NCBI GenBank assembly: GCA_036172245.1
Contig: JAYWIR010000003.1
Coordinates: forward strand, 3,224,001 to 3,288,000
Source: Raillietiella orientalis
Lineage: Eukaryota
Length of the DNA: 64,000 nt
Direction of reading: 5' to 3'
Made by a program: the position numbers and the translations under genes. The notes below the pieces were generated by a model. It was not told the origin of the DNA. It saw only the letters and a list, made by a program, of their open reading frames with translations, and ran no database searches. Each line of letters begins with the position of its first letter. The first letter of the stretch is position 1. Below, piece after piece: positions 25,583-58,299 of this stretch.

Positions 25583-26099
25583 TGTATGAACAGTTTCAAT
25601 ACAGGATGTCCTGCTAATACTCTGCAGTTGATATTGAAATCGTATTTTCCCTGTGGCACATCAGCGAATAGAGTATAATAAATTCAAAAACGCCATGCGA
25701 ACCGCAAGTTCATCTGCGTGTCTCACTCAAAATGTTCATGACAAACTGGCATGAAATATTGAAATTTTCCCTTCCAAACGCAAAAAAGGTTTTCCTATTT
25801 ACACGGTCGTCTGTTCAGATGTTTCACTGTCTTTGCTGTATGCTTATAATGCCGCACCCGGAGTTCCAGTTCGTGCTAGTTTGTCCATAATTTTACGTCA
25901 ACGTATTTCCTGCACTATTTTGAGACGGCCATATACTATTTAATACAAAAGCATTGCAAGGAAAGTTATTGTAAAACTAATCATGTAATAAATTGACGCA
26001 CTTTTCCAAGTTCACGTACGTGTGGATGTGTATGCGGAAATCATTTCTGCTTTCACTCGGATGCAAAGGGGGCGATAAATTCAGAACTTTGCACCCAAT

Positions 26100-35826: not shown

Positions 35827-37443
35827 TTGCTCGACTCCCAGCGCAGGAAGCTTAGCAGCAGCACCCACGGATTTGAAGCGATGTGCACAAAAAGGGTTGC
35901 AGCCCGATGTCCATGTGAGTTTCTGGAACTGCCGATCATCATCTCGGGTGTGCCTCAGCGGGGAAGCAGAACTGGGAGTTACTATTGATAATAAAACGAG
36001 ATGGATGTGTCCGACAAGCTACGAAGACTGGAAAGCGAAAAACATTAGACACGGTGTGGGTTCGGCATTTGAGACTGCCGATCGGTTTTCGTGATTAAGC
36101 TCAGCAAGCAAAGGAGCGTGGTTCTTGAAAGCTGTTGGGTGAATTAAACGATGGTGCTGCCGTGTGGAGGATGGACGGCAAAGCGATCCGTTTGGCAGCA
36201 GTGGTTTTTCGATTTCCGCGTTCCTTCGCGTACTGAATGCCCCCTTTTTACGACTAACGCGACCCATCGGTTGCCGTTTGTACGATTTCGATTCGGGAAA
36301 GGGAAATTGTCCCAACGCAAGCACGTGATCAGCACTTACTGGTTTCAGGCGTTTCTCCACCGGTGCTTGGAGCGTGCAAGGTGCCACGGTCAGCGGTCAT
36401 CCTCGGTCATACGTTGATCGTGTGGATGGTTAGCCACGTGCATGGCTGCGCATGTCACCACGTGCGACGGTACTTGAGGTGCACGTGCTGCCCTTTTTTT
36501 TTTTTCCACCGCCGGTACTCTTCAGTACTGTACGAGGTACAGTACTGAGTACAGGCGTGGGCTGCCCAAGCAAATGGAAGCTGCTCGTGTTCGACCTGAT
36601 GCGACGGAACAGCACGCTGCCACTTCTCCAGTTGAGTGGGTCGGAACGAAAAACAGTTGCATTAAGCAAATCGCGTAAGGAAGTCGTCCGTCGCTTGAAA
36701 GGAACGAGCACGGAAAAGGCTTTTTTTGCGGGAGGGGGGGAGAGAGAGAGAGACGGAGAAGCTCAATCAGTGGGATGTATTGAGTGCCCAGGGAAAAGGT
36801 GCTCGTTTGAACATTGCACACGTGGTCATTCGGCCAGTCTTCCTGGCTTGCATCGAGGCACACAAGTCGACGAAATCCACAGTAAATTTCCGGTGTTGCC
36901 GAAGACCCCGTCGCTCAGGAGAGTTGCCTCGCAGGGGTGTGTTGAGAATAACCGAGAAACGAATGGGGGGAACGACAATTCCCCATCCCTGCATTTGCGA
37001 TGCTTTCCGATCAGCATGACGCTCGCCTTGGGCTCCAGGTCAGCAGCGAGAAGGCAGTCTTCGGGAGTTTCGGTGATCACGCGTTTGCGTTCGCGAGTCC
37101 ATTCGAACACGTGGAAGCACGCGATAACTCCTCGATTTCGCAAGAAACGCGCACAGAGGACGTGCGGACAGATGGGATGCTGATGAGGATCACAAGAGCG
37201 ACGAGCACAAGCTCGAAACAACCGTGTGCATGAAACGCTCGGGGCGGAAGGACCCACCTCGGACTTTCTCAAGTGCTCTCTTCACTTTGTGTCGGTTGCA
37301 AAGGCAACACAACAACTTTGCGCTCCCGTCGGAGAAGCTTCACTGATGGCCTACGGGGACACCGGGATGCCGGAAGGGAACATCGTGGCCATCCCAACCC
37401 GACCTCATTGCCCATGAGCGCTTGTCGCATCGGCGCTCGCTTT
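34917..37443. repeat. Duplication block D, copy 1 (RBFA exons 3-5 + downstream DNA)
   Basis: Direct repeat of 51095-53619. Confidence 0.95.
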
Positions 37444-37450
37444 CGGCTTT

Positions 37451-38207
37451 TCGGTTTTCATGCTGGCTGTGCTGTACTCCTCTCTTCGGTGTCGGAACGT
37501 CGCGGCTGCTATTCGCACCCGCCCACACACCTCTGCAGTTTGGCCGCCGGACAGGATGACTCGCTACAAGTCATCGGTCCATTCACGGCCCTTTTCCCCT
37601 GCCCGCACCAACAGGGCAGTACGCGCCAGGCCATTCATCGACAGATCGGAAGAGACTGCGGCAGAAATGCAGGCCGCCATGCGGATGCGAAACCTAAGAA
37701 TCCACTCAAGCACCTCAGCGGTCACTCTTTTTCTTTTTTTTTTCCCGGATATGTTCGGTTTCCGAGCATTGCACGCACGCGTGCGAAAGAAGGAAGCGGC
37801 GAAGACGCTCTTCGTGCCCAAGGGCACGCATTTTCGGCAGCCGGCCCTGCATGGGCGACTGGGAGTTGCCTTAAGCGCTCCATTCGGCGTGAAAAGGATG
37901 CTAGGTGATGCTCAGCATTGAGGGTGGCTGCTGCGAAGGAGATACAGCGGAGCTCCCTCCACGGGGAGTTACCTTGGAGCCGAGGTGAACCAAACTTTGG
38001 TGGCTGCGCGCGAAGGAAGAGCCGTCGGTCCATCCCAGATTGCCGCTCTTCTTTGGAGAAGGCACGTTGCTACAAATTCACATATGGCGGATACATAGAA
38101 CAGACTCAACTTTTATACGACCAAGTCTTAGTTTCCTGATTTCTAGAAACACCTCTGAATTTAGCACGGGAACTTATGAGAGCAGACTTGCTACCACCTC
38201 AGGGAAC
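37451..38207. repeat. Duplicated block A, copy 2
   Basis: Matches 7377-8125. Confidence 0.9.
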
Positions 38208-41200
38208 CAGGGTCGGGAATCTCGAGAATTGGCAACGGGGGGAGGAGGAGAGGGGCACATAGAGTAACCGTGCCGATCGGCGTAGAAACGAGGATCTTGG
38301 CAGCAGGAAGACGTTCAGGTATCCCCCCCATCGCACAGCACATAAGACGGAGAACTGTCCAGGCTAGGATCTAGGAGGCTATGACAGACTCTGTCGCTAG
38401 CTTCATCCTCCCTCTGCTCTCCTCCATCCTTCCAAGGGAATCAGAAAGCGGCCAATGGTACCCCCCGTTCTGTGGAAAGCTGCATTCCTCTTCCGGAAAG
38501 GCTTGAAGGGGAACCGGCAGGACGGAAAGTCCCACGGGTTCCTCGTACGGAGAAGGATGGTCGTCGTGCCCGGAAGGAACCGCACACGACAAGGTATCGG
38601 CTGCCGACCCTCTTTGGTCACTGGCCGCCAGGGCTCACCACGAGCGCGTTCGGTCCTGAAGAAGGCGATATACAGCCTTCTCTCCTGAATACCCGTAATT
38701 CAGACTAGGAGCAGGGAAAGGGAGGAGGGGAGAGAGAATGGGGAAGTGGGAAGCGGGTCTCTGGGGTGCCAATTACATCCCGAGGCCTCAGAGCCTCGCT
38801 TCCCTTCCCCGAATTGAACGTTGACTATGGATCTGCCCCTTCGAGTAGGGTCGCAGTCCAGGAACATCAGACCCTCCCGCGACTCCTCGAGTCTTCCTAA
38901 CGCGGTCCGACGAAAAGAACCTCCGGTATTTCCTTCTTGCCAGCGCAGCAACCTGGTCTCTTCCTTGGGGAGTGTGTCCTCCTGAGGCTCTTCCCTGCAC
39001 GAGGAGGATGCGGTGTCCTTCAGCCGACAAACATGGCGGTCTTGAGATCGATGACTAGCGCCTCGAACCTTTCTCTTTGCTCCGAAGTCTCTAGTAGGCC
39101 GCACGCGTCGTCTTGAAGCTGCTCCCTAGGACGGAGCTTTTCGACGCCACACCCCAGCAATTTCCCTCCCTATGTGCTTCGACTTGGGACAAAAAGCACC
39201 TATTTCTTTGCGGTCTCTACGAAAGAGCTGACTAGGAGGTGAGGAACCACCCAGCGAACAGAGAAATGAGCTCCCTCGATGGGAACTGGGATCTTCATTG
39301 GTTAACAAGGCTACACACCCATCATCTGCACTAAAGTGCAAAGGAGGATTACTCAGGGCACTGGGTGAACGGAACGATAGGGGCATCCAAGGAACAGAGG
39401 AAACCTTGGTACATTGTCTTCTTCTGTGTGAGTCTCCTAGAAAAGCGATCTGAGGCAATTCGAACGCGCAACATGTGGTCAGAGTTTCCATTCAAACTTC
39501 GGTGTTTACAGCCCGACCTCTGGAAGTTCCCTTTCCCGTGCTTTCAATTGCACACCAAATCTTTGTCATTATGGGTTCGTAAGTCTCACCCTTTGCTTTG
39601 GACAGAATCAGATTGCACGTTGTTGACTTGACCCTCGAAAACTTATCTGGGGACTGGTTGTGCAGGCCGCATCGATACAGCCCGTTGCCACAGTGTACGA
39701 TTTTCCTTTATTGGGAAAAGTTTTCCTAAGAAGAGCATCCGTCCATAATCTAAGAGTTCCAACAATCTGCTGGTGCTGCTCTTATTATCCAAAAGGATTT
39801 CCGAGTGCGTGGAGAAGAATCGTAATAGTTGCACAGAAGAGTTTCAACTTGCAAGCTACTAAATGGAGTTACCACGACATTACGTTGTTTTCTGAAATAT
39901 AATTCTTTTTTTCTGAAATATAACTTTCTTTGAATCCTCTAAAATATAATTTGGCTCGATTTGACACGCCACCATTCATAGCGGTTCCTTGGCTTTGCTT
40001 GTATAACAGTGGCGGAAAAATGAGACAAAGCAAAAACAGGAAAGCGTGTATAAGCAAAGAATATACTAAAGAGAGATCCAGTAACATTCATCGTTGTTTT
40101 TATGTGTTTCCAGTTTATGCACATGGCATCGTACAAATCCCTCTTGTGCAAATGGCGCTGCATTTCGTTTCCTCTACGTCTTTTGAAGCTTCGTCTGCAA
40201 AACGAAGCTCAAACATTGAGGAATGCGTTTGCATTCACATGGAATGCGTTCGTGGATACCTAAATGAGTGCTTTATTAATCTTTCATTTCTTCGTCATAA
40301 TGATCAAGTCACTGATTCCTACCGTGGTTGCGAAATGCCTTGCAAACAAATGGGGAAAGAAGGATGGAGAAACCGTGTCTGCAAAACGGAATAAGCAAAC
40401 ATGAATACGAAATTAGTCGGTTCAAGAACAGCACTAAAGACAGCTGTAAAAAAATGATCCGAAAGTAAAGGTGTTGAAACGATGTGCTCGCCTTCAGGAT
40501 GAGCAGTGGAGACTCCGATGGATTCAGCCGACTTGCTTTACGTGTTCCTTCTCCCTGTAAGGCAGCTTCACCTGCTGGAACTTCGTCTTAGGAAGAGAGT
40601 CCTCCCGATCCATCCTGCCCAGACTATGCTCACTTTCTGGGCTGGCTGATCGCTTGGAGTCTTTCATGACTGAGTTGCGCTGATGTCGTGAATCAGTCGA
40701 TGAGCTATGGATGAAATATGTGAAGAAGTCTGCTTCTGTGAAAAGTAAGCTACGTGCAGGTGTATCTGAAATTTACCAAGAGGATCCCCTTGAAAATACA
40801 CTTACAGACACGCTCAGTGGATGCAGACCGTAATAAAAGAGCCCGGAACGAATGAGGATGGAGAGGACGACGCCGCTGACGGAATCGACGAGCGCAGATT
40901 TCATATTTATGGACCACAAGTGCACAACATCATTGAACAGCTTTGGTGAGTCATCGGAGGTGTTCCTCGTGAACATATTGAGAGACTTCGTTGAGAGCCT
41001 CTTCCTCTGTTGACTCGTTCCTGGAACAACCAGCTGTTCCATGATCTGTTGCACCAACGCTGCTGAATATCTTGTCAATGACACGTATAGAAGAAGCCTC
41101 TGCAACAGCAAACGAAGGAAAGTTGTAAGGCAACTCCAAGAGGACCGTCCAAGATGAGTAAGAAATTGCTATTCCCAAAGTCTTTCGATGTGCAGTGATT

Positions 41201-42416
41201 CGAGGCCAATCTAGGGTCATGATTTTCAAAACATTCCTTCTTATTTTAAGTTGCAATTCTCGAATCGTGAGGTACTTCTCAGCCCGAGGCCTTCTGGCTT
41301 GTTCTCACCCACTGGGTGCTTCCTATTTTGAAAAAACCGTTTCTCATCAAATCGAACAAACGCAACATGCTTTCTGGCTGGTGAGTGGGCTGTGCACGTG
41401 CTGGGCAGTGGAAATCTGTGAAAATTCTTAAATGCTGCTGGTCAAATTGCTGCATAGGAGAGAAGTGGAGAGCTCTTTCTCGTCTATTCCGTGTGGCACG
41501 CGGTGCGCTGCAAATGGTACCAGTTGCGTACATCGTATTTTCTTAATGTTTCCCAGTACTTGAAGGGAAGGGCACGGAATGGACTATTTATTAGTGATTA
41601 CAGAACATTAACGACGGCATTTTTGTCACGACGACGATGCCGTAATAATTACTTAAGTAAATAATTTGATTGTCCTGCTGCCTGAAATTCAAAGGCATTT
41701 GTTCATTTCAGTGCGTCTTCCAGCTAATTTTGGACGTAAATGATGTAAAGCAAAGAAAAAGCATGCAAGTAATTCTTCACGTCATGAGTCATTTGTGACA
41801 TGACTAATGACATGAAGCACTGCAAAATCGTGCCCGCAGGGCCTCTTTCGTGGAAAAGAAAGTCTGCGAATCGGTCTTTTGCCAATGACGGGTGTGGACG
41901 AGGGCCACGTGCAGACCCAGTTTGCACCTTTCTTCGTTTTCAGTGTATCCGCTGCTCAACTTTTTGCCACATATCGAATCCACTGGCGTATTCTTCGTTC
42001 GTATTGCTAGGATTATACATGTTTGTTGCATGAGGACGGCATGTCAACATTCTACCGATGCAGTAGAAAGGTTCCATGAACCCAAAAATCGGGAGTACGT
42101 GGAATGTGCGAATGGTGAATGTCCAGACGTTGAATTTCATGGATGAGACCGTGTAGGATGTAAGAGTTTGTGTGTGTCGCGCCTTTGCTTTGCTGTGAAT
42201 TCAGAGTGATTCCTTACTCCTACCCGACGGGTTTGAAGCCGTGTAATTGCCTAAATAACTCGAGTGCTTGTGTTTGCACCGAATTGTCAGTATGCATTCC
42301 TAAGTGTTCATGGTGTTTGCAAAGATTCGCACGTGTTACGTGTCACAAACTACCCTACAGATGGGACATTGTGTTTGTTTTCTATCTACAGGTCGAATGA
42401 ACTACAGCTGAAGTTC

Positions 42417-43518
42417 ATGTCTGAAAATCAGATTTGCAATTTTGCAAGAAAACTTGCAGGAAATGAAAAAAAAAAAACGGGATAAGGCATTGAAGTATTT
42501 GCAGAAATGGATATCTTCTTGTAAACATCCATTTGTATCAGATGACATGATGAAACTGTGGAAAGGATTGTTTTATTGTTTGTGGATGGCAGACAAACCA
42601 TTAATTCAAGAAGAGGTCTCCGAAAAATTGAGCAAATTATTGTTTTCCTTTGATGGAGACAAAAACAAGTACCTTTTTGTGGAATGCTTTTACAGAACAC
42701 TGTCACGAGAGTGGCATCACATTGATAAATTTAGGATGGAAAAGTTCCTAATGCTAGTAAGAAGATTTTACCGTCAAGTTTTGTATTATGCTAAGTCAAA
42801 TGCGTGGGATCCCCAGATCATTCAAACAGTAACTAGCATCTTAAGGAAGACTGTGTTTTGTGATGATTGCCCTAATGGCTTGAAATGTCAAGTGATGGAT
42901 GTTTATTGTGAAGAACTAGCTAAACTTAGCGATTCTCAGCTTGGTCCAGAGAAAAATCTACTTTTCTTGGATTTATTTTGCCAACTTTTGGTGCAAGAAA
43001 GTGATGTTAGTGTGTTGACATTTATGGAAAACCGAGTGTTTGACCATCTGATGAGGCAGAGTGATCCTGGCATCAAGCATGATGTGAACTTTGCACGTAG
43101 AAGGAGAGGGGCATTTGGAAAACACTGTGAAGAGGCCGAGCCTGAAATGATAGAGATGGAAGATGACTTTGAGGAACAAGAACCTAGTGAGAAAGATCCT
43201 CGAGCTGGGAATGTAAATGTAGATTTGCCTCAGCTTCGGATAGACTATCTAGCTCTGGCTAATAAAATAGCTGAAGCATTGAAACAGCCAGGACTGAATC
43301 GCCAGTCAAAGAAAAGAGGAAATCGCTATGTGAAAGCATTCAAAAAATTGAATCAAGGACTGTATCCCTTGAAGATTGTGCTTCCAGACTCAGGATCTGA
43401 GCTGGATGAATCGGATGTTGAAAAGGCTACAGTGCGTTTGACACAATTAGAAGAAGAACTAATTGCAGATCAAGAACCATGTAGAAAGAAATGCAGGATA
43501 TTGGTAAAAAAGAAATGA
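42417..43518 (+). pseudogene. RRP1: RRP1 copy 2 with a +1 frameshift in a poly(A) run (or a homopolymer sequencing error)
   Basis: A12 at ~42466 versus A11 in copy 1; otherwise the same protein sequence. Confidence 0.65.
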
Positions 43519-43816
43519 GATTTGTGTGGTCTGCCAGTTAGTGCTCATGAGTCAATAAAATCTTCATGATTTTAATGAGTGTTTTTTCAAGAAATTGTAT
43601 TTTCATATCTGAAAAAATAACAACTTTCTGGCAAAACTAGTGCTCGCTTCAACTAGGAAGACTTGAATGCCTAAAGTTTGCTACATCATGTGCCTTCTAT
43701 GTAGGCATAGCATGTCAAGGACATTACATCTTCAACATATTGTTAGCTACTTTCTGGGATCTTCTGAATCGGTTTTCATGGCAGATGGCATACGTTTTAT
43801 TTCAGGTGCTAGCAAA

Positions 43817-45639
43817 ATGTCTCAGGATTCTGCAGTCCAATACAGAACTGTTGGAGACTATATCACAAAAATCATTCATCCAGCAGATCTAATAGATCAT
43901 GAATATGGTGAGGCCATTACTGAAGAAGTAACAACAGAGACTCCTAATTATCTGGAGGACCTCGGCAATATTCTCCTGCTATCATTTCTGTATGTGCTGC
44001 AAGGAGTGCCCATGGGACTGTCTGGCAGTGTGCCCATGATGCTTCAAGCCAAGGGTGCCAGTTATGTGGACCAGGGAAAATTCAGCTTGCATTCTTGGCC
44101 CTTTTGCATAAAATTGTTGTGGGCTCCTATTGTAGATTCAGTATATAGCAAGGTTATTGGCCGTCGCAAGAGTTGGTTGATCCCCTCCCAGTATCTGTTG
44201 GGAGTGTGCATGCTCATCTGTTCCTATCAAATTGATGGATGGTTAGGAAAAGATAATGGTACTTTGGATATCAACAGTCTATTATATGCTTTCTTCACAA
44301 TGTATTTCCTGGCTGCAACCCAGGACATTGCAGTGGATGGGTGGGCACTGACAATTCTCAAGCCGTAAGCATCTGGGCAACTGGTGCATTCTTATGTGTG
44401 CCAGGAAGAATGTGTGCTATGCCTCCACTTGCAGCAGCGTGGGTCAGTCCTTTGGTTATTTTTTGGGATACGTTCTCTTCTTGGCTCTGGAATCAAAAGA
44501 ATTTTGCAATTCATATTTGAGAATTTACCCCCAGCCAACTGGAATTGTGCAGTTGTCAGGTGAGGAAATGTTGCCTTTTCTGCTTGTTCACAGTGTCATT
44601 CTAGGATTTATCTACTTTTGGGGTCTTGTGTTTTTATTTACGACAACGGTAATCTTTTTTTTCAAAAAAGAGCAAACCGCCAAGGTCAGCAATTCCCCTG
44701 GACTTCTACACACATATCATATATTATGGAAAATCTTGCGATCACCCCCTGTGATGCAATTGACAATTTGTCTGCTCACCGCCAAGGTACAGCTGGTTAT
44801 TCCTCTTTCTTGTATTGCCAAGCAGATTGCTTTTTCAGCAGTGGATGGAGTGACTGGTCTTAAGCTTTTAGCAAAAGGTGTTCCAAAAGACAAAATGGCT
44901 CTCCTAGTTGTGCCTCTGATACCATTTCAGATTCTCTTTCCTCTGTGGATGAGTAAATTTATAACTGGTCCACGTCCATTGACAGTTTATATGAAGGCGT
45001 ATATTTACAGGTAGCTTCGTGTTTCTCATCTTCATTTACAGTGTTGCTTTCTCCAGAGTGATCATAGGATTAACTTTCCCTACCCTTGTTTGGTCGTATG
45101 AGTGGTGGGTGCGAGATACTAGTGTCACATGGTCCTTTTACTTTACTGTTTCCTTGCTGTACATACTTTATCAGGTAAACTGAATGTTCATGTTTCCGAT
45201 CACAGTGATTCCAGATTCCAAGTTATGCTATTTTCATGTCCCAAATAGCTTTTTTCAATAGAATCAGTGATCCAGTGGTAGGGGGTACCTATTTAACGCT
45301 ATTGAATACTCTAGCTAACATGGGATCAAATTGGCCTCTGACTAGTGTCCTGTGGCTAGTAGATCCGCTGACCTTCAAACACTGCACAGGTGTTGAATCG
45401 ACGTTTAGCTGTCATAGCAATACAACTGAGCAGGTAAAATGAAACCAAACAACCACCTTGCTTTATGGTCTTGGCAGACATGCCACGATTTGGGTGGAAC
45501 TTGCGTAACCACTTTGGATGGCTACTACATTTGTGTATTACTGACAACTTTCTTTGGACTTTTGTGGTGGCGTTATTTCCGCCATGTGTTCTCCAGGCTA
45601 GAGGTTCTTCCGCAGCGTCGTTGGAAATGTGTTCACTGA
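43817..45639 (+). CDS. SLC33A1: Acetyl-CoA transporter 1, copy 2
   Basis: Same exon structure as copy 1, frame intact, about 11 amino-acid differences. Confidence 0.9.
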
Positions 45640-46660
45640 TGTATGAACAGTTTCAATACAGGATGTCCTGCTAATACTCTGCAGTTGATATTGAAATCGT
45701 ATTTTCCCTGTGGCACATCAGCGAATAGAGTATAATAAATTCAAAAACGCCATGCGAACCGCAAGTTCATCTGCGTGTCTCACTCAAAATGTTCATGACA
45801 AACTGGCATGAAATATTGAAATTTTCCCTTCCAAACGCAAAAAAGGTTTTCCTATTTACACGGTCGTCTGTTCAGATGTTTCACTGTCTTTGCTGTATGC
45901 TTATAATGCCGCACCCGGAGTTCCAGTTCGTGCTAGTTTGTCCATAATTTTACGTCAACGTATTTCCTGCACTATTTTGAGACGGCCATATACTATTTAA
46001 TACAAAAGCATTGCAAGGAAAGTTATTGTAAAACTAATCATGTAATAAATTGACGCACTTTTCCAAGTTCACGTACGTGTGGATGTGTATGCGGAAATCA
46101 TTTCTGCTTTCACTCGGATGCAAAGGGGGCGATAAATTCAGAACTTTGCACCCAATGACTAACCACCGAGCTCTTAACCCTGTGTTTCTAACTTCCTAGC
46201 CAGCATCCCACTTATGTAAGCCGCATTCTGGTCAAGTCCCTCCTTTTTCCATGCTTTCTCTTGGTATTTCGGGTGGTTCCGATGCTTGTTACTATGTCTG
46301 GGAATGGTCCGTTTCGTACTGCACATATTTCTTCACATGGTTCACCGGATGCAACAAAGTTCTTTTTCCTTCTCTTTCGCTCTATTTCTCCACTTGATCA
46401 TCGATGGCGCAGATGCTTGAAAGCTCAACGCAACCATCCATTCCCGGAATGACATTTGCTCCTCGTTTCTTCCGAGCTTTGGAAATCAATTGCCTCCTCC
46501 AAACCAGACTCCTGGCTCGCTTTTAGCAATAGCTTCAGCCGAAACTCAGAATGGAGAATAGCCACTGGAACCACTCTTCTACCTCCGCCAAAGTCATTTC
46601 TTCAAAACGAAAACGAGACTTCCGATCCTTCTATATGATAGGTCACCATCATTGAGATGC

Positions 46661-48667
46661 TCGATTTCTCTAGAGGGTAAGCTACGACTCGAGTGCCTCA
46701 CCGACCGCCGATCCAAAGGAGAGGGAACAACGGGTAGTCTTGATCGATTAAAAGGTCAATTATGAGGAAGCGCTTGGCTGACGGCTCACGAAGTTCTTTG
46801 GCGCTGCCCCCGTCACTCAAGCAAGAGAGTGCTCTGGGAGGGGACCACTCTATGAATCCAGCAAGGTCTCCGAAGAAAGGAATGGGTTCCTCTTGCTCTC
46901 GGGTTGTCTCCAGAAGGGAATCCCGAAAGGAACGAACGTCTTCCTTATTCTCTCCGGAGGGCTCCCGCGGAGAGTACTGCTCCGCGGAGGAACCGAAATG
47001 GAACCGCTCCTCGCTTCCTTGTCTGAGAAGAACATCGAAGGGACGCGTCCGAATTTCTCTGTGATTAGCTCCCCGATGAAAACAAGGCCCCTGATGGCAT
47101 TTTGGGGAGCCAGCCCTCCGAGAGAGGTATCAACCCGCTCCATGGTACGCGACGGAGGGAGGGTGGGTCTTTACAAAAGGTGTGGACGGCTCCATTTGCG
47201 CAACCCGAGAGGAGTCTTGTAGGGATCGGTTACCTTGGATCCGGGAAGGACCCTGAAGGGCCAACTCCCAATCTCGGTCGGTCAAGAGCGCATCCGCTGG
47301 TTTTCGAGTTCCACCAGCGCTGCACCCGAATAAACAGCCAGAGTCATCTTGTGGGAGGAACTCGAAAGACCACTCATTTCTCTGTCGTTGGTGCTTCGTG
47401 TGGACACGGGCAGAGAGTTTGGCAGATTGTCGGCACGCTAGATGAACCTTCGGGTGCTCCTCCAGGAAGAACCGTAGGCCCTCTAAATCCGGATGGACAT
47501 CTCCGTGCTCACCTCGCTCCCTCCCACCTCTATCCAACAAGGGAAGAGGCTGTTTCTTTACGGGAGATCCGCCTTCAGTAGGCGAGGCCACCGTTGGATT
47601 TGTGGGAACTGCTCGCAGAGCTTCCCGGAGTGCGGCAGAATCGGAATTTCTTGCTGCATAGTGGCGCCCTTCTTCCAGGGAGAGAGCGGCCAGATGCAGC
47701 AGCCTTCTCGCGCCCCACCGACGCCATCCGCCGACGTTGTTGAGGCGTTTGTTTGTCTGTCGAAGGCTGCGGACGGCGTCGGTTTTCGCGAGACCTTGTG
47801 CCATACCTGTGCGGAGGCACGCCTGAGACGGAGACGGCGCTTCGAAGAGGCCGAGACCACACTTGCGGCGGCGGTTTCTACGGTGCGTCGAAGCAGCAGT
47901 CAGTTAGCCACGTGAACTGACATCGAAGGACATGGCGGAAATCGTTCTGCAGATCGGGACTCTCCAGGGGTGCCATGACAGGACTTTCTGCACTTCGTGG
48001 ACCTTCCACTCCGATATCGGTCCAAGGATCATGAATATTGCTTTTATTTACCTTTCCTTTGCATTGTACTACTAATCCTTCTTTCAAGTCTATTTTCCTT
48101 GACTATTTCGGTCTGTAAATGTTTCAGGAGGCAAATTCCCACCGTTCTTTCTTTTGATTCAGTCTTTTTTGGTTAGCAAAGATCAAAATCATATCCAGAT
48201 TCTTACAAACCGTTACTTTCTTGGTATAGAGCTGCACCCTAAGTGTATTCGTGACGAAGTGGAATTTGGTCACTACGAGGTGCACTCTCTTGAATGATGT
48301 TTTTCCCACGGTCGAACCTTGAATAAAAATTTATGAAAGTGATTTCCTGCTAATTTTCATTCCTTTTTCGATTGTTTTGATAATAATTGACATTTTCTCT
48401 GCATTGCTGCTTTTTTTCTGTTTGCTAAGGAAGCCCGTTCTTCACTGAAGGAATTTGTCGGTGGCAACTAAGTATTTAATTTGATGCTAAGTAAATTAAT
48501 GGAAATAGCGCTTGGCTGCCCTGGACTTCTTCTTGCAGACTGTTGTGTAGATACTGTAAAGAATGCAATACCTGAGCAAACTTGTATAATGGAGTCAAGT
48601 GGTGTATTCACAAGATAGTGAAATATGTGATTAGCTTGGACACTTACTTCAAGAAGCCTCCATTGTA
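46661..48667. repeat. Duplication block C, copy 2 (ends in a dead RBFA exon-1 stub)
   Basis: Matches 31765-33799; ATGTCA has become ATGTGA at ~48625. Confidence 0.93.
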
Positions 48668-50356
48668 CAACCGTGTGCTTGAAAAGCTCTGGGCGGAAGG
48701 ACCCACCTCGGACTTTCTTAAGTTCTCTCTTCACTTTGTGTCGGTTGCAAAGGCAACAAAACAACTTTGCGCTCCCGTCGGAGAAGCTTCACTGATGGCA
48801 TACGGGGACACCGGGATGCCGGAAGGGAACATCGTGGCCATTCCAACCCGACCTCATTGCCCATGAGCGCTTGTCGCATCGGCGCTCGCTTTCCGCCGCG
48901 AATGCAGAGCTGCACGACGAATGTATGCGGTGCGAAACTATTTAAGGCGGCAAATTTAAGAACGCTGACCATTGACCTCAAAATTCCGAAGCACAAGATG
49001 CAGCCAGCCAGCTGGCCGGTTTTCTGTTTTCTTTTAAATTGCATTCTTGTTGAGGTTAACCCATTGTAGGAAAACAAGACTTAGGACGTGTGAGTGGGCA
49101 CGTGTCACGTACGCGGGCAGAATGAGCTCCTGCACCGGTAGAGTTATTCGTAGTTGTGCAATCACCATCGTGATGCCAGAGCGAATGCCCGACATCGTGC
49201 GTTCCCAGCCTGCGGTACTCCTTGGTTTGGATGTGGTCGCATCACTGAGGCTGCAGGTCATGCAGCAGTGGCTGCTGGAAATGGTGCCTTATAAATGTTT
49301 GCGCCATCCTGGGTGTATCCAAGCAAATACACAAGCGTTTATTGTCTCCTTCCGATGTCCACTTTTACCATATCAAATATTTGTTGAACACTCATCTCAC
49401 CGTCTATGTAAACCACATCACAATATGTCTCTTTCACGAATTTCAAGTATTCTTCGTACATCGGCCACACGCACAGATCGAAATAGCCCTCCGCATCAGG
49501 AGTATCGTAAAGACGCTTCTCTCTCCTGCTCATGCACGTGCTCTTTTCAAGTTGAAGAAAATATTCCTTATCACACAAATTCCCTAGATATCTTGAAGCA
49601 AACACAAGGAATCCTTCTATGAGAATAGGGGTTCCTTGTTCGCGACGCACGTGCAAAGCACGATACACATCTTGCATCATCTTATCCATGTCGATGGCAG
49701 TTATCACATCATAATTTTTAAAGGTGTAACCCGAAACCAGCTGATGATGGTCGTCATCTTGAGGATAGTAGTAATCATCCTGGTTGATTACAATACAGTG
49801 CCCAAAATGTTCCTCCAAGCTGGTCGCAAGGGTTGTTTTCCCGCCACAAGTGACCCCTGATATGCCAACCACCGGAGCTAGCGTTTTTCTCAGATGTTCT
49901 GGTACTCCTGCTGGAACTTTCGAAAGTCTTCCTCCGTGAACATGGTTGTCTTTTTCTTTTTGCTTTTCTTTTGAAGCGGGAGGCGATTTGAATATTTCAG
50001 AATCTGGAAGGATCACAGGAAACGCTAAGCCACACTTACATTTCTTGTGGTGGTGGCAGAGATGTGGGTTGTGCTCAGTTGCAAGATAATCTTGGAAATT
50101 ATGTGCAGTGTTTATCGTTTCGTGATTTCTAGTTTCGTTGCTTTCTTCCTTGTTCGTTCTCTGATCTTGTGGAGCTTGCAGAGCTGGAAGATCCTCAGAG
50201 AAGAACTCTGAACCATTTTGCACCAATGACGCCGCCATTCTGATGAAAGAACCTATTTTGCATGAAAGCACATCATAGATTTCATGTGAAGGTGGTTTCA
50301 GAGAGATCTCTCCCACCAAACAAAGAATTTATTCTTCGTCGAGGATCTGTAAACAG
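48667..50356. repeat. Duplication block E, copy 1 (NRK/AROS locus)
   Basis: Matches 53394-55082; its first ~225 nt also match 37218-37443. Confidence 0.93.
49339..50238 (-). CDS. NMRK1: Nicotinamide riboside kinase with an AROS-derived N-terminal extension (299 aa unspliced, 287 aa if the 36-nt intron is removed)
   Basis: VVGISGVTCGGKTTLA P-loop, INQDDYY, NYDVITAIDM, ILIEGFLVF, GYFD.CVWPMY; AUG at 50238 in frame, preceded by acceptor-like tttcatcag. Confidence 0.85.
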   Translation of the reverse strand: MAASLVQNGSEFFSEDLPALQAPQDQRTNKEESNETRNHETINTAHNFQDYLATEHNPHLCHHHKKCKCGLAFPVILPDSEIFKSPPASKEKQKEKDNHVHGGRLSKVPAGVPEHLRKTLAPVVGISGVTCGGKTTLATSLEEHFGHCIVINQDDYYYPQDDDHHQLVSGYTFKNYDVITAIDMDKMMQDVYRALHVRREQGTPILIEGFLVFASRYLGNLCDKEYFLQLEKSTCMSRREKRLYDTPDAEGYFDLCVWPMYEEYLKFVKETYCDVVYIDGEMSVQQIFDMVKVDIGRRQ

Positions 50357-51222
50357 GAATAACGTACAACGAGGTAAGGTTAGCCTGTTAAAATAGAAAT
50401 GACATTTTCACCAAGTCAGTAATTTGTTTGCTTTGCTGCTACAACGATGAAAAAATTGAAACTTTGTAATTCAGATTGAAAACCGACTCAGTATTTCAAT
50501 TGAACCAGCACTCCGTGTATTTCTTCATTCTCTTATTCTTTCTGCGGAGTCTTGATATTTTGGATGCCTTTGTTCAGGGTGCATGCCATTCAAATGCAAA
50601 CCTTCAGTTTGAGTTTCTCAAATAGAAGCCTACAGTGTTCTGATTCGAAGTTAATTTGTGTTTGTGGTTGCAAAGTTGTTAGTGAATTTAACGTTGATTC
50701 AGTTCATTGCTAATCGTATGTTAAACGTATGTAATGTTGGGGTGCACCGTTTGAAGATAGGAAATCCTTCAAAGAAAGAAAGACGTGTTGCAAGTGTTTT
50801 GAATGGTGCTGTGTGCAAAAGGATAATTCTCAAGGTATTCGTGCCATGCTGAAGTGAATGAAAGAAGTTCCAAATTTTTGATCCAGCATGGGAGGATGCA
50901 ATTACTTTGTATTCCTTCAGATTGGTGTGCAACAGGAAGGTTGTGTCTAGAGGTTGTTAAGAGTTTTGTTATCTAAATCGCTCTATAATGTTGTAGATGC
51001 AAAATAAGCTCCTCACTGTGGAGAATCCAAAAATTCCTGAAAGAATTGACATTATTAGTGATCATTAGTTCTTATTCTGCCACCTATAATCATCTTTCAA
51101 TTACTCCACTCAGAAAGTGAGAAAATGTCTATCATGATTGTGTTCATGTATGTGTCTGGTGCTGCACAAAATCTCACACCATTAGACTGATTAAATCTTT
51201 ATGTGCTTGTTCTTACTTTTAG

Positions 51223-52004
51223 GTACAGGTGTCAAAGTCACTAAGGGGCTTGGTTGTCTATTGGACATGTTCCCACAGTGAGAAGGATGTTGTCATAGAA
51301 AATTTATTAAATGAGAGCATTGATACAGTGCGGCAAGAACTGGCAACTCATATCCAGCTACACTCTGTACCATACATTAGCTTCAGCAAAGACAGATTAT
51401 ACGAGAGGGAGATGCAAGTCGAAAACTTGTTAGCTACGGCAGATTATGGGGAAAACTATCAACCACTACTTTCAACAAGGAGAGCTCACGGTGCTTTGGA
51501 AGTAGATAAGGTTGGAAAAGAAATGTGGCATGAATGTCAGATCACATGTTCGTGCAGGATGAAGTTCAGTCATTGAATCATCCACTGTTGACTGTTCCTG
51601 AAAATACACTTGGGCTTCCTCACAGCAAAATTTGGGCAAAGGTATGGGTTCCCCTTCGTGTCCATCTTTTATAACTTACGAAGTTTCAGATTGTAAAGAA
51701 AAAAAGAGAAGAGAGACTATGTCCAAAAGAATCAAAGTCTCTACAGGAATTGCAGGCCTTTTATGATTGTTCAAGTGAACAGCTCATATTGAAGAGGAAG
51801 GACTTTGTCAAGGCACTGAAACAGAGACGAGCACATATACAGAATCTCAACCAGGATATGAAGCAATCAGAAATGGAAGTTTCTGAAATCTCACCCCTGG
51901 AAGCAGAGGATGAGAGCTGCAGTTACTGCGACGACGACGACGACCAGGATGAGGATTACAACGAATTAGATTGGCGTGCAGACGCAGGCAGTGCAGAGGA
52001 TTAG
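51223..52004 (+). pseudogene. RBFA: RBFA partial duplicate (exons 3-5 only)
   Basis: Same sequence as 35045-35826 but lacks exons 1-2 upstream. Confidence 0.75.
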
Positions 52005-54064
52005 TTGCTCGACTCCCAGCGCAGGAAGCTTAGCAGCAGCACCCACGGATTTGAAGCGATGTGCACAAAAAGGGTTGCAGCCCGATGTCCATGTGAGTTT
52101 CTGGAACTGCCGATCATCATCTCGGGTGTGCCTCAGCGGGGAAGCAGAACTGGGAGTTACTATTGATAATAAAACGAGATGGATGTGTCCGACAAGCTAC
52201 GAAGACTGGAAAGCGAAAAACATTAGACACGGTGTGGGTTCGGCATTTGAGACTGCCGATCGGTTTTCGTGATTAAGCTCAGCAAGCAAAGGAGCGTGGT
52301 TCTTGAAAGCTGTTGGGTGAATTAAACGATGGTGCTGCCGTGTGGAGGATGGACGGCAAAGCGATCCGTTTGGCAGCAGTGGTTTTTCGATTTCCGCGTT
52401 CCTTCGCGTACTGAATGCCCCCTTTTTACGACTAACGCGACCCATCGGTTGCCGTTTGTACGATTTCGATTCGGGAAAGGGAAATTGTCCCAACGCAAGC
52501 ACGTGATCAGCACTTACTGGTTTCAGGCGTTTCTCCACCGGTGCTTGGAGCGTGCAAGGTGCCACGGTCAGCGGTCATCCTCGGTCATACGTTGATCGTG
52601 TGGATGGTTAGCCACGTGCATGGCTGCGCATGTCACCACGTGCGACGGTACTTGAGGTGCACGTGCTGCCCTTTTTTTTTTCCACCGCCGGTACTCTTCA
52701 GTACTGTACGAGGTACAGTACTGAGTACAGGCGTGGGCTGCCCAAGCAAATGGAAGCTGCTCGTGTTCGACCTGATGCGACGGAACAGCACGCTGCCACT
52801 TCTCCAGTTGAGTGGGTCGGAACGAAAAACAGTTGCATTAAGCAAATCGCGTAAGGAAGTCGTCCGTCGCTTGAAAGGGACGAGCACGGAAAAGGCTTTG
52901 CCCGGGAGGGGGGGGGAGAGAGAGAGAGACGGAGAAGCTCAATCAGTGGGATGTATTGAGTGCCCAGGGAAAAGGTGCTCGTTTGAACATTGCACACGTG
53001 GTCATTCGGCCAGTCTTCCTGGCTTGCATCGAGGCACACAAGTCGACGAAATCCACAGTAAATTTCCGGTGTTGCCGAAGACCCCGTCGCTCAGGAGAGT
53101 TGCCTCGCAGGGGTGTGTTGAGAATAACCGAGAAACGAATGGGGGGAACGACAATTCCCCATCCCTGCATTTGCGATGCTTTCCGATCAGCATGACGCTC
53201 GCCTTGGGCTCCAGGTCAGCAGCGAGAAGGCAGTCTTCGGGAGTTTCGGTGATCACGCGTTTGCGTTCGCGAGTCCATTCGAACACGTGGAAGCACGCGA
53301 TAACTCCTCGATTTCGCAAGAAACGCGCACAGAGGACGTGCGGACAGATGGGATGCTGATGAGGATCACAAGAGCGACGAGCACAAGCTCGAAACAACCG
53401 TGTGCATGAAACGCTCGGGGCGGAAGGACCCACCTCGGACTTTCTCAAGTGCTCTCTTCACTTTGTGTCGGTTGCAAAGGCAACACAACAACTTTGCGCT
53501 CCCGTCGGAGAAGCTTCACTGATGGCCTACGGGGACACCGGGATGCCGGAAGGGAACATCGTGGCCATCCCAACCCGACCTCATTGCCCATGAGCGCTTG
53601 TCGCATCGGCGCTCGCTTTCCGCCGCGAATGCAGAGCTGCACGACGAATGTATGCGGTGCGAAACTATTTAAGGCGGCAAATTTAAGAACGCTGACCATT
53701 GACCTCAAAATTCCGAAGCACAAGATGCAGCCAGCCAGCTGGCCGGCTCTGCTTTTCCTTTTAAATTGCATTCTTGTTGAGGTTAACCCATTGTGAAAAA
53801 GGAGACTTAGGACGTGTGAGCGGGCACGTGTCACGTACGCGTGCAGAATGAGCTCCTGCACCGGTAGAGTTATTCGTAGTTGTGCAATCACCATCGTGAT
53901 GCCAGAGCGAATGCCCGACATCGTGCGTTCCCAGCCTGCGGTACTCCTTGGTTTGGATGTGGTCGCATCACTGAGGCTGCAGGTCATGCAGCAGTGGCTG
54001 CTGGAAATGGTGCCTTATAAATGTTTGCGCCATCCTGGGTGTATCCAAGCAAATACACAAGCGT

Positions 54065-54619
54065 TTATTGTCTCCTTCCGATGTCCACTTTTACCATATC
54101 AAATATTTGTTGAACACTCATCTCACCGTCTATGTAAACCACATCACAATATGTCTCTTTCACGAATTTCAAGTATTCTTCGTACATCGGCCACACGCAC
54201 ACATCGAAATAATCCTCTGCATCAGGAGGATCATAAACACGCTTCTGTCTCCTGCTCATGCACGTGCTCTTATCAAGTATAAAAAAATATTTCTTATCAC
54301 ACAAATTCCCTAGATATCTTGAAGCAAACACAAGGAATCCTTCTATGAGAATAGGGGTTCCTTGTTCGCGACGCACGTGCAAAGCACGATACACATCTTG
54401 CATCATCTTATCCATGTCGATGGCAGTTATCACATCATAATTTTTAAAGGTGTAACCCGAAACCAGCTGATGATGGTCGTCATCTTGAGGATAATAGTAA
54501 TCATCCTGGTTGATTACAATACAGTGCCCAAAATGTTCCTCCAAGCTGGTTGCAAGGGTTGTTTTCCCGCCACAAGTGACCCCTGATATGCCAACCACCG
54601 GAGCTAGCGTTTTTCTCAG
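54065..54619 (-). CDS. NMRK1: Nicotinamide riboside kinase lacking an in-frame AUG before the P-loop (start uncertain; candidate CTG at 54619)
   Basis: Intact NRK motifs including RVYDPPD..YFD.CVWPMY; AATAAA overlaps the stop codon. Confidence 0.8.
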   Translation of the reverse strand: MRKTLAPVVGISGVTCGGKTTLATSLEEHFGHCIVINQDDYYYPQDDDHHQLVSGYTFKNYDVITAIDMDKMMQDVYRALHVRREQGTPILIEGFLVFASRYLGNLCDKKYFFILDKSTCMSRRQKRVYDPPDAEDYFDVCVWPMYEEYLKFVKETYCDVVYIDGEMSVQQIFDMVKVDIGRRQ

Positions 54620-54963
54620 ATGTTCTGGTACTCCTGCTGGAACTTTCGAAAGTCTTCCTCCGTGAACATGGTTGTCTTTTTCTTTTTGCTTTTCTTTTGA
54701 AGCGGGAGGCGATTTGAATATTTCAGAATCTGGAAGGATCACAGGAAACGCTAAGCCACACTTACATTTCTTGTGGTGGTGGCAGAGACATGGGATGTGC
54801 TGAGTTGCTGGAGAATCTTCAAGTTTTGTTGCAGTTTTTCTTCCTTCGGGAGTTCTGGAATCTCTGGTTTGTGCTTTTTCTTTCGCGGTTTCTTGGTTGC
54901 TTGCAGGACTGGAGGATCCTCTTGGAAAAATTCCAGACTTTTTTTCACTAATGATGCAGACAT
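54616..54963 (-). CDS. RPS19BP1: Active regulator of SIRT1 / RPS19-binding protein 1, 103 aa, 2 exons (54963-54766, 54729-54616)
   Basis: N-terminus MSASLVKKSLEFF (cf. MSAALLRRGLELL) and C-terminus KKKTTMFTEEDFRKFQQEY (cf. TVFTEEDFQKFQQEY), joined by a 36-nt GTAAGT..TTCCAG intron. Confidence 0.88.
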
Positions 54964-55101
54964 TCTGATAAAAGAACTCTGTTAGCAAACAAGCACATCA
55001 TAGCTCTGATGTGAAGGTGGTCCTAGAGTGATCTCTCCCACCAAACAAAGAATTTATCATCTTTCAAGAATCTCTAAACAGCATTTATTAATAAGCTGAG
55101 T

Positions 55102-57045
55102 TTACATCACATAAGATGGTACTTTTGCGTTGCCTGAGGATGCAAGTGAATCATCATCCAGAATGCCAGATGCCTTCTGGATGTATTGTGGATTAAGCAG
55201 CACTTCTTCTTCCATCTTCAGCAGCAACTTCTCTAGATCCATTGCTGATTCAATCTAAAAAGGCCACAAAAGCCCTCCACAACTTTTGTCAAAGGTATTG
55301 CCTACCGCATGGTCCAGCTTCCTCAGCATTTCTGGACTGTTGAATTTTTCCAAATTGTCTTCAAAAACAACATTGCCATCCTGCTGACTGATGCGTGCTG
55401 CTATGTCTCCATCTTCAATCATGTGAAGCACAAGCATTTCCGCTTCCTGTGGTGAAGACAGCTGTACCCGATGAGCCATATCCGAAAGAGAAAGTGTCAT
55501 GAACGTTTTGGTTAATCTCTGTATATTCTTCTTATACAAAGAAGCTACAGTCTGCTTCACTAGACCCATATTTTTGTCCCTAGAGTAGGATAGTTGGTCA
55601 AAATGAAACTTGTGATGTTTCTCATACCTAAGGTACTGTTCTTCATATTTATTTACCATCTGCTGTACGTTGGTCACATTGTTAGAGGAATACGCTGCTG
55701 CTAGCTCGTGATAGGGCTGGCACAAGGAGCGAAAGAAACGGCTCACCACACTTGAACAATATTTGGGCAAGTCAGAAATCTACTGATGCTATTAGGGTGG
55801 CTATTCTTGTGGTCGAATTTCAGGCTTACCTTCCCATAGAGCATGAGGGAAACAAGAATGTATTTTTTGTAGGCTTCCAGCATGATATGAGATACAGCAA
55901 GTGCAGGAGTTGTCACACACACTTGGAAAAAGTAGTGAGCTCTATCAAAGTTCTTCACTGCCATGTAAATCATTCCTCCATAATAATAATAGAGCAGAAA
56001 GCTCTGGACATCATAATGACCATTCTGCTTGGCAATTTTAGAAAACAGCTTTCCTAGATGGAGGGTACTTGCTTCATGGCTTATGTCAGCAACATCTATA
56101 TCCAGGAAATCCAAAACTGGTCTGAAGTTCTGTGCCAGTAAGCTGAGCTGGCATAGGTCAGTATGGACTGAAGTTAACTGTGATTCAAACAACTGAATTT
56201 TCTGAATCGCCTTGCACAATATATTGATCCCTCTGTGTGATGCTTGCTTTTCAACCAGACTCTGGGCAAACATATGGCACAATTGTGCATCTGGAAACAG
56301 CATTCCTTATCATTTCTATGCTGAAATTCTTTAAACCTTCAGAACTTACATAGATCTGTGGCAAAACGGACTTGTTCTCCATTACATGCTGTGATAAATT
56401 CATGAAACTGTGCATACAGAGGTTCATAATCAGGAATATTAGCAAGAGAAAATTTCACATATAACACAAGCAATATTCCCAAGGAATGCTGTTGAAGATC
56501 TAGAGTAGCCAGAACATTGTCAAGATGCACAGCACTTTTTGACAGAAATTCTGCAGCCTTTAGAAGGTAATCATACAAATGTGAGAAATTTCCTGAAACC
56601 AACAAAGGTGCATTTACATTTTTTTTTTTTTTCCACACAATTTAATGCAGTTGGAGGATTTGCATAAAATTATTGCGGGCTACGAAATAAGTTGATGGGA
56701 GTAAGCAGCTTTAACACCACCTTCTCTAAATAGGTCACACGGAATACACACGGTTAGGATCCCTTTTTTTTAAACATTTGCCTAGATTTATGTGTATTGA
56801 ATTTTCCGGCACTGCAGTTCCGTTATTCGATTTTCATTTCTCTGGCACGTTTCCTTATCCTCATTCAAAAAGCACTGGTTCCTTAACTCACGGGCAAAAC
56901 GCAAAAAAAGTGCTGATCCCGACAGCACGTGAAAACAGCACAGCAACCGCAAACACGAAACCTGTTCGGAAGGAAGCATTTTCCAGTTACCTTGGGCAGA
57001 GAGTGTTCTGACTGTTGTAACGTACTGTTCCAAAGTGGAAGCCAT
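55102..57045 (-). CDS. COPS3: COP9 signalosome subunit 3, multi-exon
   Basis: [80 protein letters not shown]; exon 1 57045-56991, exon 2 56592-56350; ends PSYVM*. Confidence 0.96.
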
Positions 57046-58299
57046 TCATTCACAAGAGGCACGTTCTGCGGTCCAATCTTCAGAAATTCCGACGAGCCAT
57101 GCAGGCCATCGACGCCACCGCCGCTCGCTAGGGGACCACCGCGCCGCCTGCACTTCGGCAACCCAGCGAAGACGCTCGCTTGGCGCGCGCCCTTCCCCCC
57201 CCCCCCCCCCGCCGAGCCCGCGAGAGCAGGCGAGACCTACTCCCCGTGGCATGTGGCCCCCGGGACTACCGCTCTACTCTGTCCGCTCGGCGCCACCCCC
57301 CACAGCACTGTAAACACATTTTGCCGCAGTCGGGAAAAGGAAACGGGAAGAAACAAACACCTCCTGCACTTGGGCCTGGGAAGGGGGAGGAAATAGAAAA
57401 AAACAAAAAACAGCCTTTTTGGCCGTAAGCGATCGATGGAACGGATTCACCTAATAACCTAAAAGTGTCGATGGGTGATGGGAAAGTGCACTGCGACTCC
57501 GTATTACTCGTATCACATGTTTCAAGCCTTGTTTTTTCCAGGAGGATTTGGAACTATTGGGAACATTGCTTGCAGTCTTCCCACATCAGCTGCCCATCCG
57601 CATTCCTTCCACCAAGTGAGTTTCTATGCGGTCCTCATGCGGGAAATGGAAGCCTTCGTGGAAAAGTTGCTCCTGGAAACTATGAATGATGACAAATCGA
57701 GAATCTGTGTATGAAACACATGCGACAATCCCATGAACGATCTTCTGAAGACAAAGGATCGTTCATCGTGCCGTCGTATTTACAAATATTGCAGCATGGA
57801 AATCTCAATCAGTTCTCGTTTACTCACTGTATGTCAGCATCGATAACCCATCAGTTTCCGGAAAAGGATGAATGATCATTGCAAGGAGAGACGAATAGTC
57901 GAGCAGATGGAGTTGGATAGGACAGCGTTTTAGGAGGCGAACGTCTGTTAGCCACAGAAAAATGCGACCTATAAATGCATTGCGTCTGCTGCAGCTCCTC
58001 GGAAACCGAAATTGGGTTTGCAAACTTGAGGAACCACACAACTTGCAAAAAAACTTTGTTCCAGCACTTTTGTTATCTATATAATATATGTATTACATTA
58101 CCCAATACTCCACACTGGGCTATGAAATCTCGGGAAACTGAAGCTTTCATTTCATAATTTCTTCCGCTGCAAAAAAATTGCATTTACTGGAAAAAAATAT
58201 ATCTCAATGCAGTATTCGAAACTAGGAGCAAAAATTAATGGCACGACACATCATCATTCATTTAACAGGATAATTACGCTGCAACATCAAGATAAGGTG

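Follow-up and report, generated by a model that had tools for sequence, protein, structure and literature searches.

Overlapping and duplicated AROS and nicotinamide riboside kinase reading frames in Raillietiella orientalis: a possible remnant of an animal polycistron

Introduction

How could an enzyme be made from a reading frame that overlaps another gene and has no AUG at its start? The question is raised by a locus of Raillietiella orientalis within a stretch of 64,000 nucleotides (nt), here called the window (contig JAYWIR010000003.1 of assembly GCA_036172245.1, positions 3,224,001 to 3,288,000; coordinates below are counted from the first letter of the window). On its minus strand the coding sequence (CDS) of AROS (RPS19BP1, Pfam PF15684) runs into an open reading frame (ORF) for nicotinamide riboside kinase (NRK), the first codon of which is CTG. 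A first-pass annotation, made from the sequence alone, proposed that one mRNA yields both proteins, by reinitiation at the CUG, by use of a second splice donor or by −1 slippage. The computational analysis described here points, tentatively, to another answer. A paralogous copy of the unit lies 4.7 kb away and places an AROS-derived ATG in the kinase frame, and the locus may be what remains of a conserved animal polycistron comprising AROS, DPM2 and NRK. Conserved animal polycistronic mRNAs are few, and the translation of their downstream cistrons is poorly understood.

Copy A: a kinase frame without an AUG

In the copy for which the overlap was first noted, copy A, AROS consists of two exons. 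Exon 1 (54766..54963) begins with the ATG at 54963-54961 and contains 198 nt, or 66 codons. It is followed by a 36-nt intron (54730..54765, GTAAGT...CCAG) and by exon 2 (54616..54729), which carries the conserved C-terminal motif and ends AAC ATC TGA, with the TGA at 54618-54616. The spliced product is 103 amino acids long. Exon 2 matches PF15684 above the curated threshold (35.4 bits against a cut-off of 27, E=1.8e-8), and exon 1 by itself has no Pfam match at E<=1. The kinase ORF (54065..54619) comprises 184 codons and a stop at 54067-54065, and begins with the CTG at 54619-54617, in the −1 frame relative to AROS. The AROS stop and the first kinase codon share the letters CTGA, a 4-nt overlap between two ORFs that lie in series on one strand.

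The predicted product of this ORF is, by similarity, a full-length NRK. Of 98 candidates, 69 are homologues at E<=0.001, with a best identity of 44%, and the human NRK1 chains 2p0e and 2qg6 match across residues 8-180 of the 184 (E=1e-34). In an alignment of 22 sequences, both window copies retain all 19 invariant columns; each departs at one of the 16 near-invariant columns, copy A at G136 and copy B at P131. No ATG precedes the P-loop in copy A, and the first methionine lies beyond it. All 17 NRK orthologues fetched start with methionine, and 11 of them have it 6-12 residues before the glycine of GISGVT. The CTG, present in both copies, is 9 residues before this glycine.

The kinase frame does not begin at the CTG. 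It is open from position 54997, giving 310 codons in total, and the 126 codons ahead of the CTG (54620..54997) contain no ATG. This upstream stretch covers part of the 5' leader, AROS exon 1, the intron and exon 2; of the two frames, the intron interrupts that of AROS with two stops and leaves that of the kinase open. Within the AROS CDS there are no kinase-frame stops, against 5.6 expected when codon order is shuffled (P=0.0005) and 6.7 expected under synonymous resampling (P=0.0002). The same two procedures give P=0.008 and 0.005 for exon 1 alone, and P=0.064 and 0.037 for exon 2 alone; when exon 1 is split, P rises to 0.14 for its codons 1-28 and to 0.09 for its codons 29-66. The other alternative frame of the CDS has 4 stops where 3.7 are expected. 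The null model was calibrated on 1058 codons from five other coding stretches in the window, which contain 81 stops against 96.6 expected, a slight overprediction, and the longest open −1 run in these stretches is 52 codons, as against 126 at copy A. The openness of the kinase frame in copy A is beyond chance. What the first-pass annotation had stated of the sequence itself, namely the exons and intron of AROS, its TGA at 54616 and a −1 NRK frame that starts at the CTG and stays open across the AROS CDS and its intron, is borne out by these results.

Copy B: a tandem paralogue with an AUG

The unit that contains copy A (53394-55081) has a paralogue, unit B, at 48667..50356. The duplicated unit is 1.7 kb long and 93.5% identical overall, with a patchy distribution of differences. 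The ORF of copy B (49339..50238, minus strand) comprises 299 codons if unspliced and extends from an AROS-derived ATG at 50238, in the context A..ATGG, to the kinase stop. Its exon 1 (50238-50040) has 199 nt rather than 198 and is followed by the same 36-nt intron (50039-50004). This net gain of one nucleotide places the ATG in the kinase frame, whether the intron is removed or not. From the AROS exon 2 sequence, taken in the kinase frame, the ORF passes on to the kinase CTG at 49893, and the predicted product has 287 or 299 residues with and without splicing, of which about 115 form an N-terminal leader. The first ~22 residues are AROS-like (MAASLVQNGSEFFSEDLPALQA), beyond which the frame equivalent to AROS has stops, and Pfam recognises AAA_18 at residues 124-250. 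As predicted from these frames, the genome has an AUG-initiated kinase ORF. The first-pass claim that the kinase lacks an AUG of its own is correct for copy A and fails for the genome as a whole, since in copy B the ATG of AROS is in the kinase frame.

Between the ATG and the CTG of copy B the three frames contain 0, 3 and 6 stops (P=0.001 by nucleotide shuffle; P=0.03 for exon 1 alone). Identity between the copies is 79% in the 5' flank and 70.7% in exon 1 (58 substitutions), and it is complete across the intron and exon 2 (150/150). The kinase sequences agree at 540 of 555 positions, and 13 of the 15 differences fall within one 92-nt patch. The 58 substitutions of exon 1 are accompanied by 1 indel in a MAFFT alignment or 5 gap openings in BLAST; elsewhere in the window, duplicated segments have 33 gap openings for every 126 mismatches. 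This scarcity of indels, a count that depends on the aligner, hints at coding constraint. The leader has no relatives among the best 150 of 1009 matches at E<=0.001 in the representative library, where no aligned stretch begins before query residue 102. Pfam searches of 12 longer proteins among these 150 gave one with AROS and one with DPM2.

AROS, DPM2 and NRK in other animals

Metagenome contigs, from libraries whose type is not known, were scanned with the NRK alignment and gave 14 loci. Four of these (L001, positions 1-1354; L003, 1-1402; L004, 1-2154; L005, 1-1744) carry AROS, DPM2 and NRK in this order on one strand, with all 12 ORFs confirmed by Pfam. The four form a single NRK clade with support of 100/99 in a tree of 34 rows. 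The ORFs are closely packed. From the AROS stop to the ATG of DPM2 the spacers are 20, 20, 14 and 77 nt, and from the DPM2 stop to the ATG of NRK there is a 1-nt overlap (UGAUG, in L001) followed by spacers of 19, 13 and 11 nt. L003, with its three ORFs in 1402 nt, has a poly(A) run at its end, and L001 breaks off directly after AATAAA; both look like tricistronic mRNAs. ATG is scarce between the start of AROS and NRK in these two contigs, with 5 found against 12.2 expected in L001 (P=0.013) and 3 against 11.5 in L003 (P=0.003). No such depletion is seen in L004 and L005, for which only the DPM2 stretch was counted (5 against 4.2 and 10 against 5.4 expected).

The remaining loci are more varied. 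Five that are close to one another (L007, L008, L010, L011 and L012) have a DPM2 ORF ~0.8-0.9 kb upstream of NRK, supported by Pfam in two of the five. L002 and L006 have neither AROS nor DPM2 upstream of NRK, and L009, L013 and L014 end at NRK and are uninformative on upstream genes. In the representative library, a model from the ostracod Darwinula stevensoni (P0282) has AROS residues 8-98 fused straight to NRK. At its junction ...SVFTEEDF is followed directly by NNGKTSLA..., the first half of the P-loop being absent, and it looks like a gene model that bridges two abutting ORFs. Another model, P0194, joins DPM2 to NRK.

These sequences also bear on the identity of the window AROS. Its exon 1 can be aligned with the AROS of L001, L003 and the Darwinula model from MS.SL.KK.L..F through NLKILQQLS. 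In the genomic contig L004, AROS is interrupted at the place matching the window intron, just before I-[LF]-x-Y. The window protein shares with AROS/RPS19BP1 both the C-terminal ...FTEEDF.KFQQEY and the N-terminal MS.SL.KK.L..F. It differs in being ~23 residues shorter than the AROS of L001 and L003, a shortened architecture that is also that of the Darwinula AROS, and in having a CDS that overlaps a kinase ORF. DPM2 is absent between AROS and the kinase in the window, and a search with two peptide patterns found none elsewhere in it. The highest-scoring NRK relative is from the ostracod Cyprideis torosa. The 34-row tree, in which the bootstrap had not settled, gives the window sequence no firm place and groups it only weakly with domain 2 of the Cyprideis protein; the one grouping taken from this tree is the clade of the four tricistronic contigs. 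That protein (P0191, 558 amino acids) has two tandem NRK-like domains and a long acidic repeat tail.

Judged from these contigs and models, the linkage of AROS and NRK is old, and the first-pass idea that the two form a coupled unit gains support from the AROS/DPM2/NRK contigs and from the Darwinula model. The stop-to-start geometry that had been proposed is likewise found in the relatives, where the AUG of the kinase lies between a 1-nt overlap and 19 nt past the preceding stop. The suggestion that the pairing reflects SIRT1 and nicotinamide adenine dinucleotide (NAD) biology fares less well. It is attractive, yet it is weakened by the position of DPM2, an unrelated glycosylation subunit, between the two genes in the relatives.

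Origin of the locus and alternative explanations

The reading favoured here, tentatively and with somewhat less than even confidence, is that the locus is the remnant of a conserved AROS-(DPM2)-NRK polycistron that has been duplicated and subfunctionalised. Starting from an ancestral animal polycistron of this type, DPM2 would have been lost from the unit in the window genome, and the kinase ORF would have come to abut AROS, with the TGA overlapping a first kinase codon that is CTG and not ATG. A tandem duplication of the 1.7-kb unit may then have allowed the labour to be divided between the copies. Copy A, which keeps an intact spliced AROS, would supply AROS. In copy B the net gain of one nucleotide in exon 1 would let the former AROS AUG drive the kinase, while the AROS frame was lost to stops. 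Gene conversion may keep the copies identical from the intron through exon 2 and over most of the kinase, and the patchy identity fits conversion as the source of the identical tracts. Copy B is presumed to be expressed and to be the supplier of the kinase. Under this scheme the intact kinase ORF and open kinase frame of copy A would persist because of conversion with copy B, and no exotic recoding would be required, because copy B has an in-frame AUG. A fusion of the copy B type also needs a frame already open from about codon 29, and inheritance of this frame by copy A would explain much of its openness.

Several observations weigh against this scheme. Of the 115 leader codons of copy B, 49 are identical to those of copy A, so its open frame is partly inherited, and exon 1 alone reaches only P=0.03. 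The argument from indels varies with the aligner, which finds either 1 or 5 events. In the unconverted patch of the kinase, 9 residue differences stand against 2 synonymous changes, counted by eye, and conserved sites are altered in both copies (P131T and a lysine-to-glutamate change in copy B, G136D in copy A); together these make relaxed constraint on either copy possible. The kinase frame of copy A is open throughout exon 1, including codons 1-28 (P=0.14), which the scheme does not need. Finally, the appearance of two tandem copies could have arisen in the assembly as an artefact.

A rather doubtful alternative is that copy A is a working dual-coding bicistron. In this case the AUG-less kinase would be made by a termination-coupled restart at CUG or by a change of frame from the AROS AUG, the arrangement would descend from an ancient tricistronic mRNA, and copy B would be a snapshot of the passage from polycistron to fusion by insertion of one base. 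If this were so, NAD salvage would, in many invertebrates, be tied by that ancient mRNA to a factor of ribosomes and sirtuins.

The first route, in which ribosomes that terminate on the UGA of AROS resume translation at the CUG overlapping it, or at a GUG seven codons on, seems unlikely. It would agree with the four tricistronic contigs, in each of which the kinase starts at or just past the preceding stop, and with the place of the CTG, which falls within the range of 6-12 residues before GISGVT occupied by methionine in most orthologues. The kinase ORF is also intact and has all its invariant residues. Yet there is no AUG at the kinase start, the context of the CTG is poor (C at −3, A at +4), the 103 codons of AROS are long for reinitiation, and no unusual fold is predicted at the junction (z=-0.42). 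In the relatives the ORF that precedes the kinase is the short DPM2, of 76-78 codons, and not AROS. Restart at the CUG would furthermore leave the open kinase frame upstream unexplained. Leaky scanning to the kinase start finds no help in copy A, where internal ATGs are not depleted (2 against 3.7 expected).

The second route, in which copy A produces an AROS leader fused to the kinase and copy B is the hard-wired version of this fusion, appears improbable. The shift would occur through the second GT of the AROS intron at 54761, 4 nt past the main donor at 54765 and giving a 32-nt intron, through −1 frameshifting, or through an extra A added in transcription at the A7 run (54945-54939). The opening of the kinase frame over the entire AROS CDS (P=0.0005 and 0.0002) would be expected under such a mechanism, copy B illustrates that an ORF of this kind is viable, and the donor 4 nt downstream yields the correct frame with the linker ...SEIFKSPPASK. 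Given copy B, however, the openness from about codon 29 is inherited and not independent, and codons 1-28 give P=0.14. The shifted donor is possible, but by eye its GTGTGG is much weaker than GTAAGT, and it would account only for the openness of exon 2 (P=0.04-0.06). As to slippage, the A-rich motifs G AAA AAA (54946-54940) and G AAA AAG (54880-54874), like a further C AAA AAG, are mismatched at the first base, and no canonical heptamer of the form X XXY YYZ is present in the AROS CDS. Folds downstream of the first two are ordinary (z=-1.54, with 17 of 200 shuffles as good, and z=+0.90), so no stable structure is predicted there. Neither the tandem donor nor the slippage put forward in the first-pass annotation is supported.

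About as improbable as such a fusion, or very slightly more so, is that the kinase ORFs are relics made from neither copy and remain intact only through a recent loss of the AUG together with conversion. The missing AUG of copy A, the 9 replacements against 2 synonymous changes in the unconverted patch, and the loss of one near-invariant residue in each copy (G136D in A, P131T in B) would all suit a relic. Both ORFs are complete, however, and keep 19 of 19 invariant residues; the kinase is still 44% identical to orthologues and matches human NRK1 at E=1e-34, and the leader of copy B is open while its AROS frame has gained stops.

Least probable of all is an AUG supplied from outside, by a spliced leader ending in AUG or by an upstream exon joined at an acceptor-like site at 54965, for although a CTAAC (54985-54981), a pyrimidine tract and a CAG stand immediately before the AROS ATG, the AG at 54965 ends a kinase-frame codon with the AROS AUG 1 nt on in another frame, the ATGs of RRP1 and SLC33A1 likewise have acceptor-like sites ahead of them, at 30 and 11 nt, the 138 nt from the stop of the upstream gene COPS3 to AROS are operon-like, and flatworm leaders that end in AUG supply start codons (available text of PMC9851317), the idea rests wholly on motifs judged by eye, the CTAAC is not preserved in copy B, the nearest proteins are from arthropods, and a search with Rfam at the gathering score found no spliced leader or other RNA family in the 64-kb window.

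Comparison with known systems

Polycistronic nuclear mRNAs have been described from animals, including the dicistronic genes of Drosophila and the pair Sloth1/Sloth2 (available text of PMC4528330 and PMC9681215), and from green algae (available text of PMC7896298 and PMC11892635). As far as these texts describe them, such polycistrons resemble the unit studied here in that the ORFs of several unrelated proteins follow one another on the same strand, separated by very short spacers, and L001 and L003 each have the look of one three-ORF mRNA, the first cistron of which is poor in ATG. The window differs from them in that its cistrons overlap, no AUG begins the second, DPM2 is missing from the middle, and the whole unit is duplicated with one copy a fusion.

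The flatworm spliced leader donates an AUG at its 3' end (available text of PMC9851317, citing Cheng et al. 2006). A leader of that type would similarly supply an AUG to an ORF that lacks one, and the acceptor-like site at 54965 is in phase; the difference is that no leader is known for the organism of the window. In comparison with human NRK1 (2p0e, 2qg6, 2ql6 and 2qsy), the window kinases are similar along their full length, including the P-loop GISGVTCGGKTT. They differ in that copy A has no AUG, copy B has a leader of ~115 residues, and each has a change at a near-invariant site (G136D and P131T, respectively). Against a leader as the source of the kinase AUG, arthropod spliced leaders are known only from some crustaceans, and none is known that ends in AUG.

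Termination-reinitiation at overlapping stop and start codons, UAAUG or AUGA, is known from caliciviruses and influenza B virus. The window shares with these the overlap of the upstream stop with the first codon downstream (C-UGA), and L001 has UGAUG. In the window, however, translation would resume at a CUG, the ORF upstream belongs to a cellular gene and has 103 codons, and no ribosome-tethering element is known upstream, none having been sought. At the INK4a/ARF locus a shared exon is read in two frames. AROS exon 2 is comparable, since copy A has it in the AROS frame and the ORF of copy B takes it in that of the kinase. Here, however, the two frames belong, as far as shown, to two paralogues, and no choice between first exons of a single gene leads to them.

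A literature search, to which most subscription journals were out of reach, found no paper on the linkage or coupling of AROS, DPM2 and NRK, in agreement with the first-pass annotation, which knew of no description. One candidate for an earlier report of a DPM2 polycistron, PMC13670568, was set aside because in its available text DPM2 occurs only within a reference. There is precedent for polycistrons, for dual-coding exons and for fusion through a frameshift; the AROS-DPM2-NRK unit and the present combination of overlap and fusion appear to be undescribed. Taken together, the relatives and the two copies would present one unit in a series of states, with separate AUG-initiated cistrons in the relatives, an overlapping cistron without AUG in copy A and a hard-wired fusion in copy B. 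They also call for caution in annotation, as gene predictors fuse these genes (AROS-NRK in Darwinula, DPM2-NRK in P0194) or would miss the kinase.

Neighbouring sequence and other features of the window

The upstream neighbour of copy A is COPS3 (55102..57046, minus strand), with five exons assigned by eye and the Pfam domains COP9_hel_rpt and PCI. Of 516 candidates, 314 are homologous at E<=0.001; the closest proteins are from arthropods, with a best identity of 65% to a spider protein. The COPS3 stop is at 55104-55102, and the AROS ATG lies 138 nt further on. A run of ~20 G (57195-57215, minus strand) occurs in a stretch rich in guanine and cytosine (G+C) just upstream of the first COPS3 exon.

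The 5' leader of copy A (54964..55089, minus strand) is the sequence between the AATAAA of COPS3 (55089-55084) and the AROS ATG, and includes a block of 28 nt that recurs unchanged in copy B. The kinase frame has an ATG at 55060, from which it is open only as far as the TGA at 55000-54998. A start at this ATG, with the TGA excised by a 63-nt intron (55041-54979), was considered and rejected, since the donor GTGGGA is weak and the CTAAC is too near the acceptor. The splice-like signals of the leader, that is the CTAAC, the pyrimidine tract and the CAG that ends at 54965, were judged by eye. The leader also contains ATGATG at 55001-54996, which is kept in both copies (54996-55001 and 50271-50276). 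The upstream ORF that it opens has 18 codons in copy A and overlaps the AROS ATG, whereas the corresponding ORF of copy B terminates 17 nt before the ATG.

Sites with a pyrimidine tract and CAG were seen at 22310-22345 (RRP1), 23735-23762 (SLC33A1) and 54965-54990 (AROS, 1 nt before the ATG). RRP1 and SLC33A1 are ~320 nt apart and COPS3 and AROS 138 nt, both operon-like distances, and the sites could reflect introns in 5' untranslated regions or trans-splicing. Large segmental duplications of 95-99.5% identity, which could be real or an assembly artefact, pair 18117-26605 with 38213-46662, 31765-33799 with 46661-48667, 34913-37444 with 51091-53620, and 7377-8126 with 37451-38208; RRP1 (Nop52) and the acetyl-CoA transporter SLC33A1 each occur twice. 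A plus-strand ORF at 51223-51573, found again at 35045-35395, encodes a ribosome-binding factor A domain (PF02033, E=1.3e-8); the former is divergent from copy B, ~0.9-1 kb from its ATG. Positions 1-18000 of the window (14310-14999, for example) have ~60% G+C and long ORFs on both strands, as against ~40% G+C in the nearby housekeeping genes, and include part of an alpha-macroglobulin/complement TED domain (PF07678, E=1e-9).

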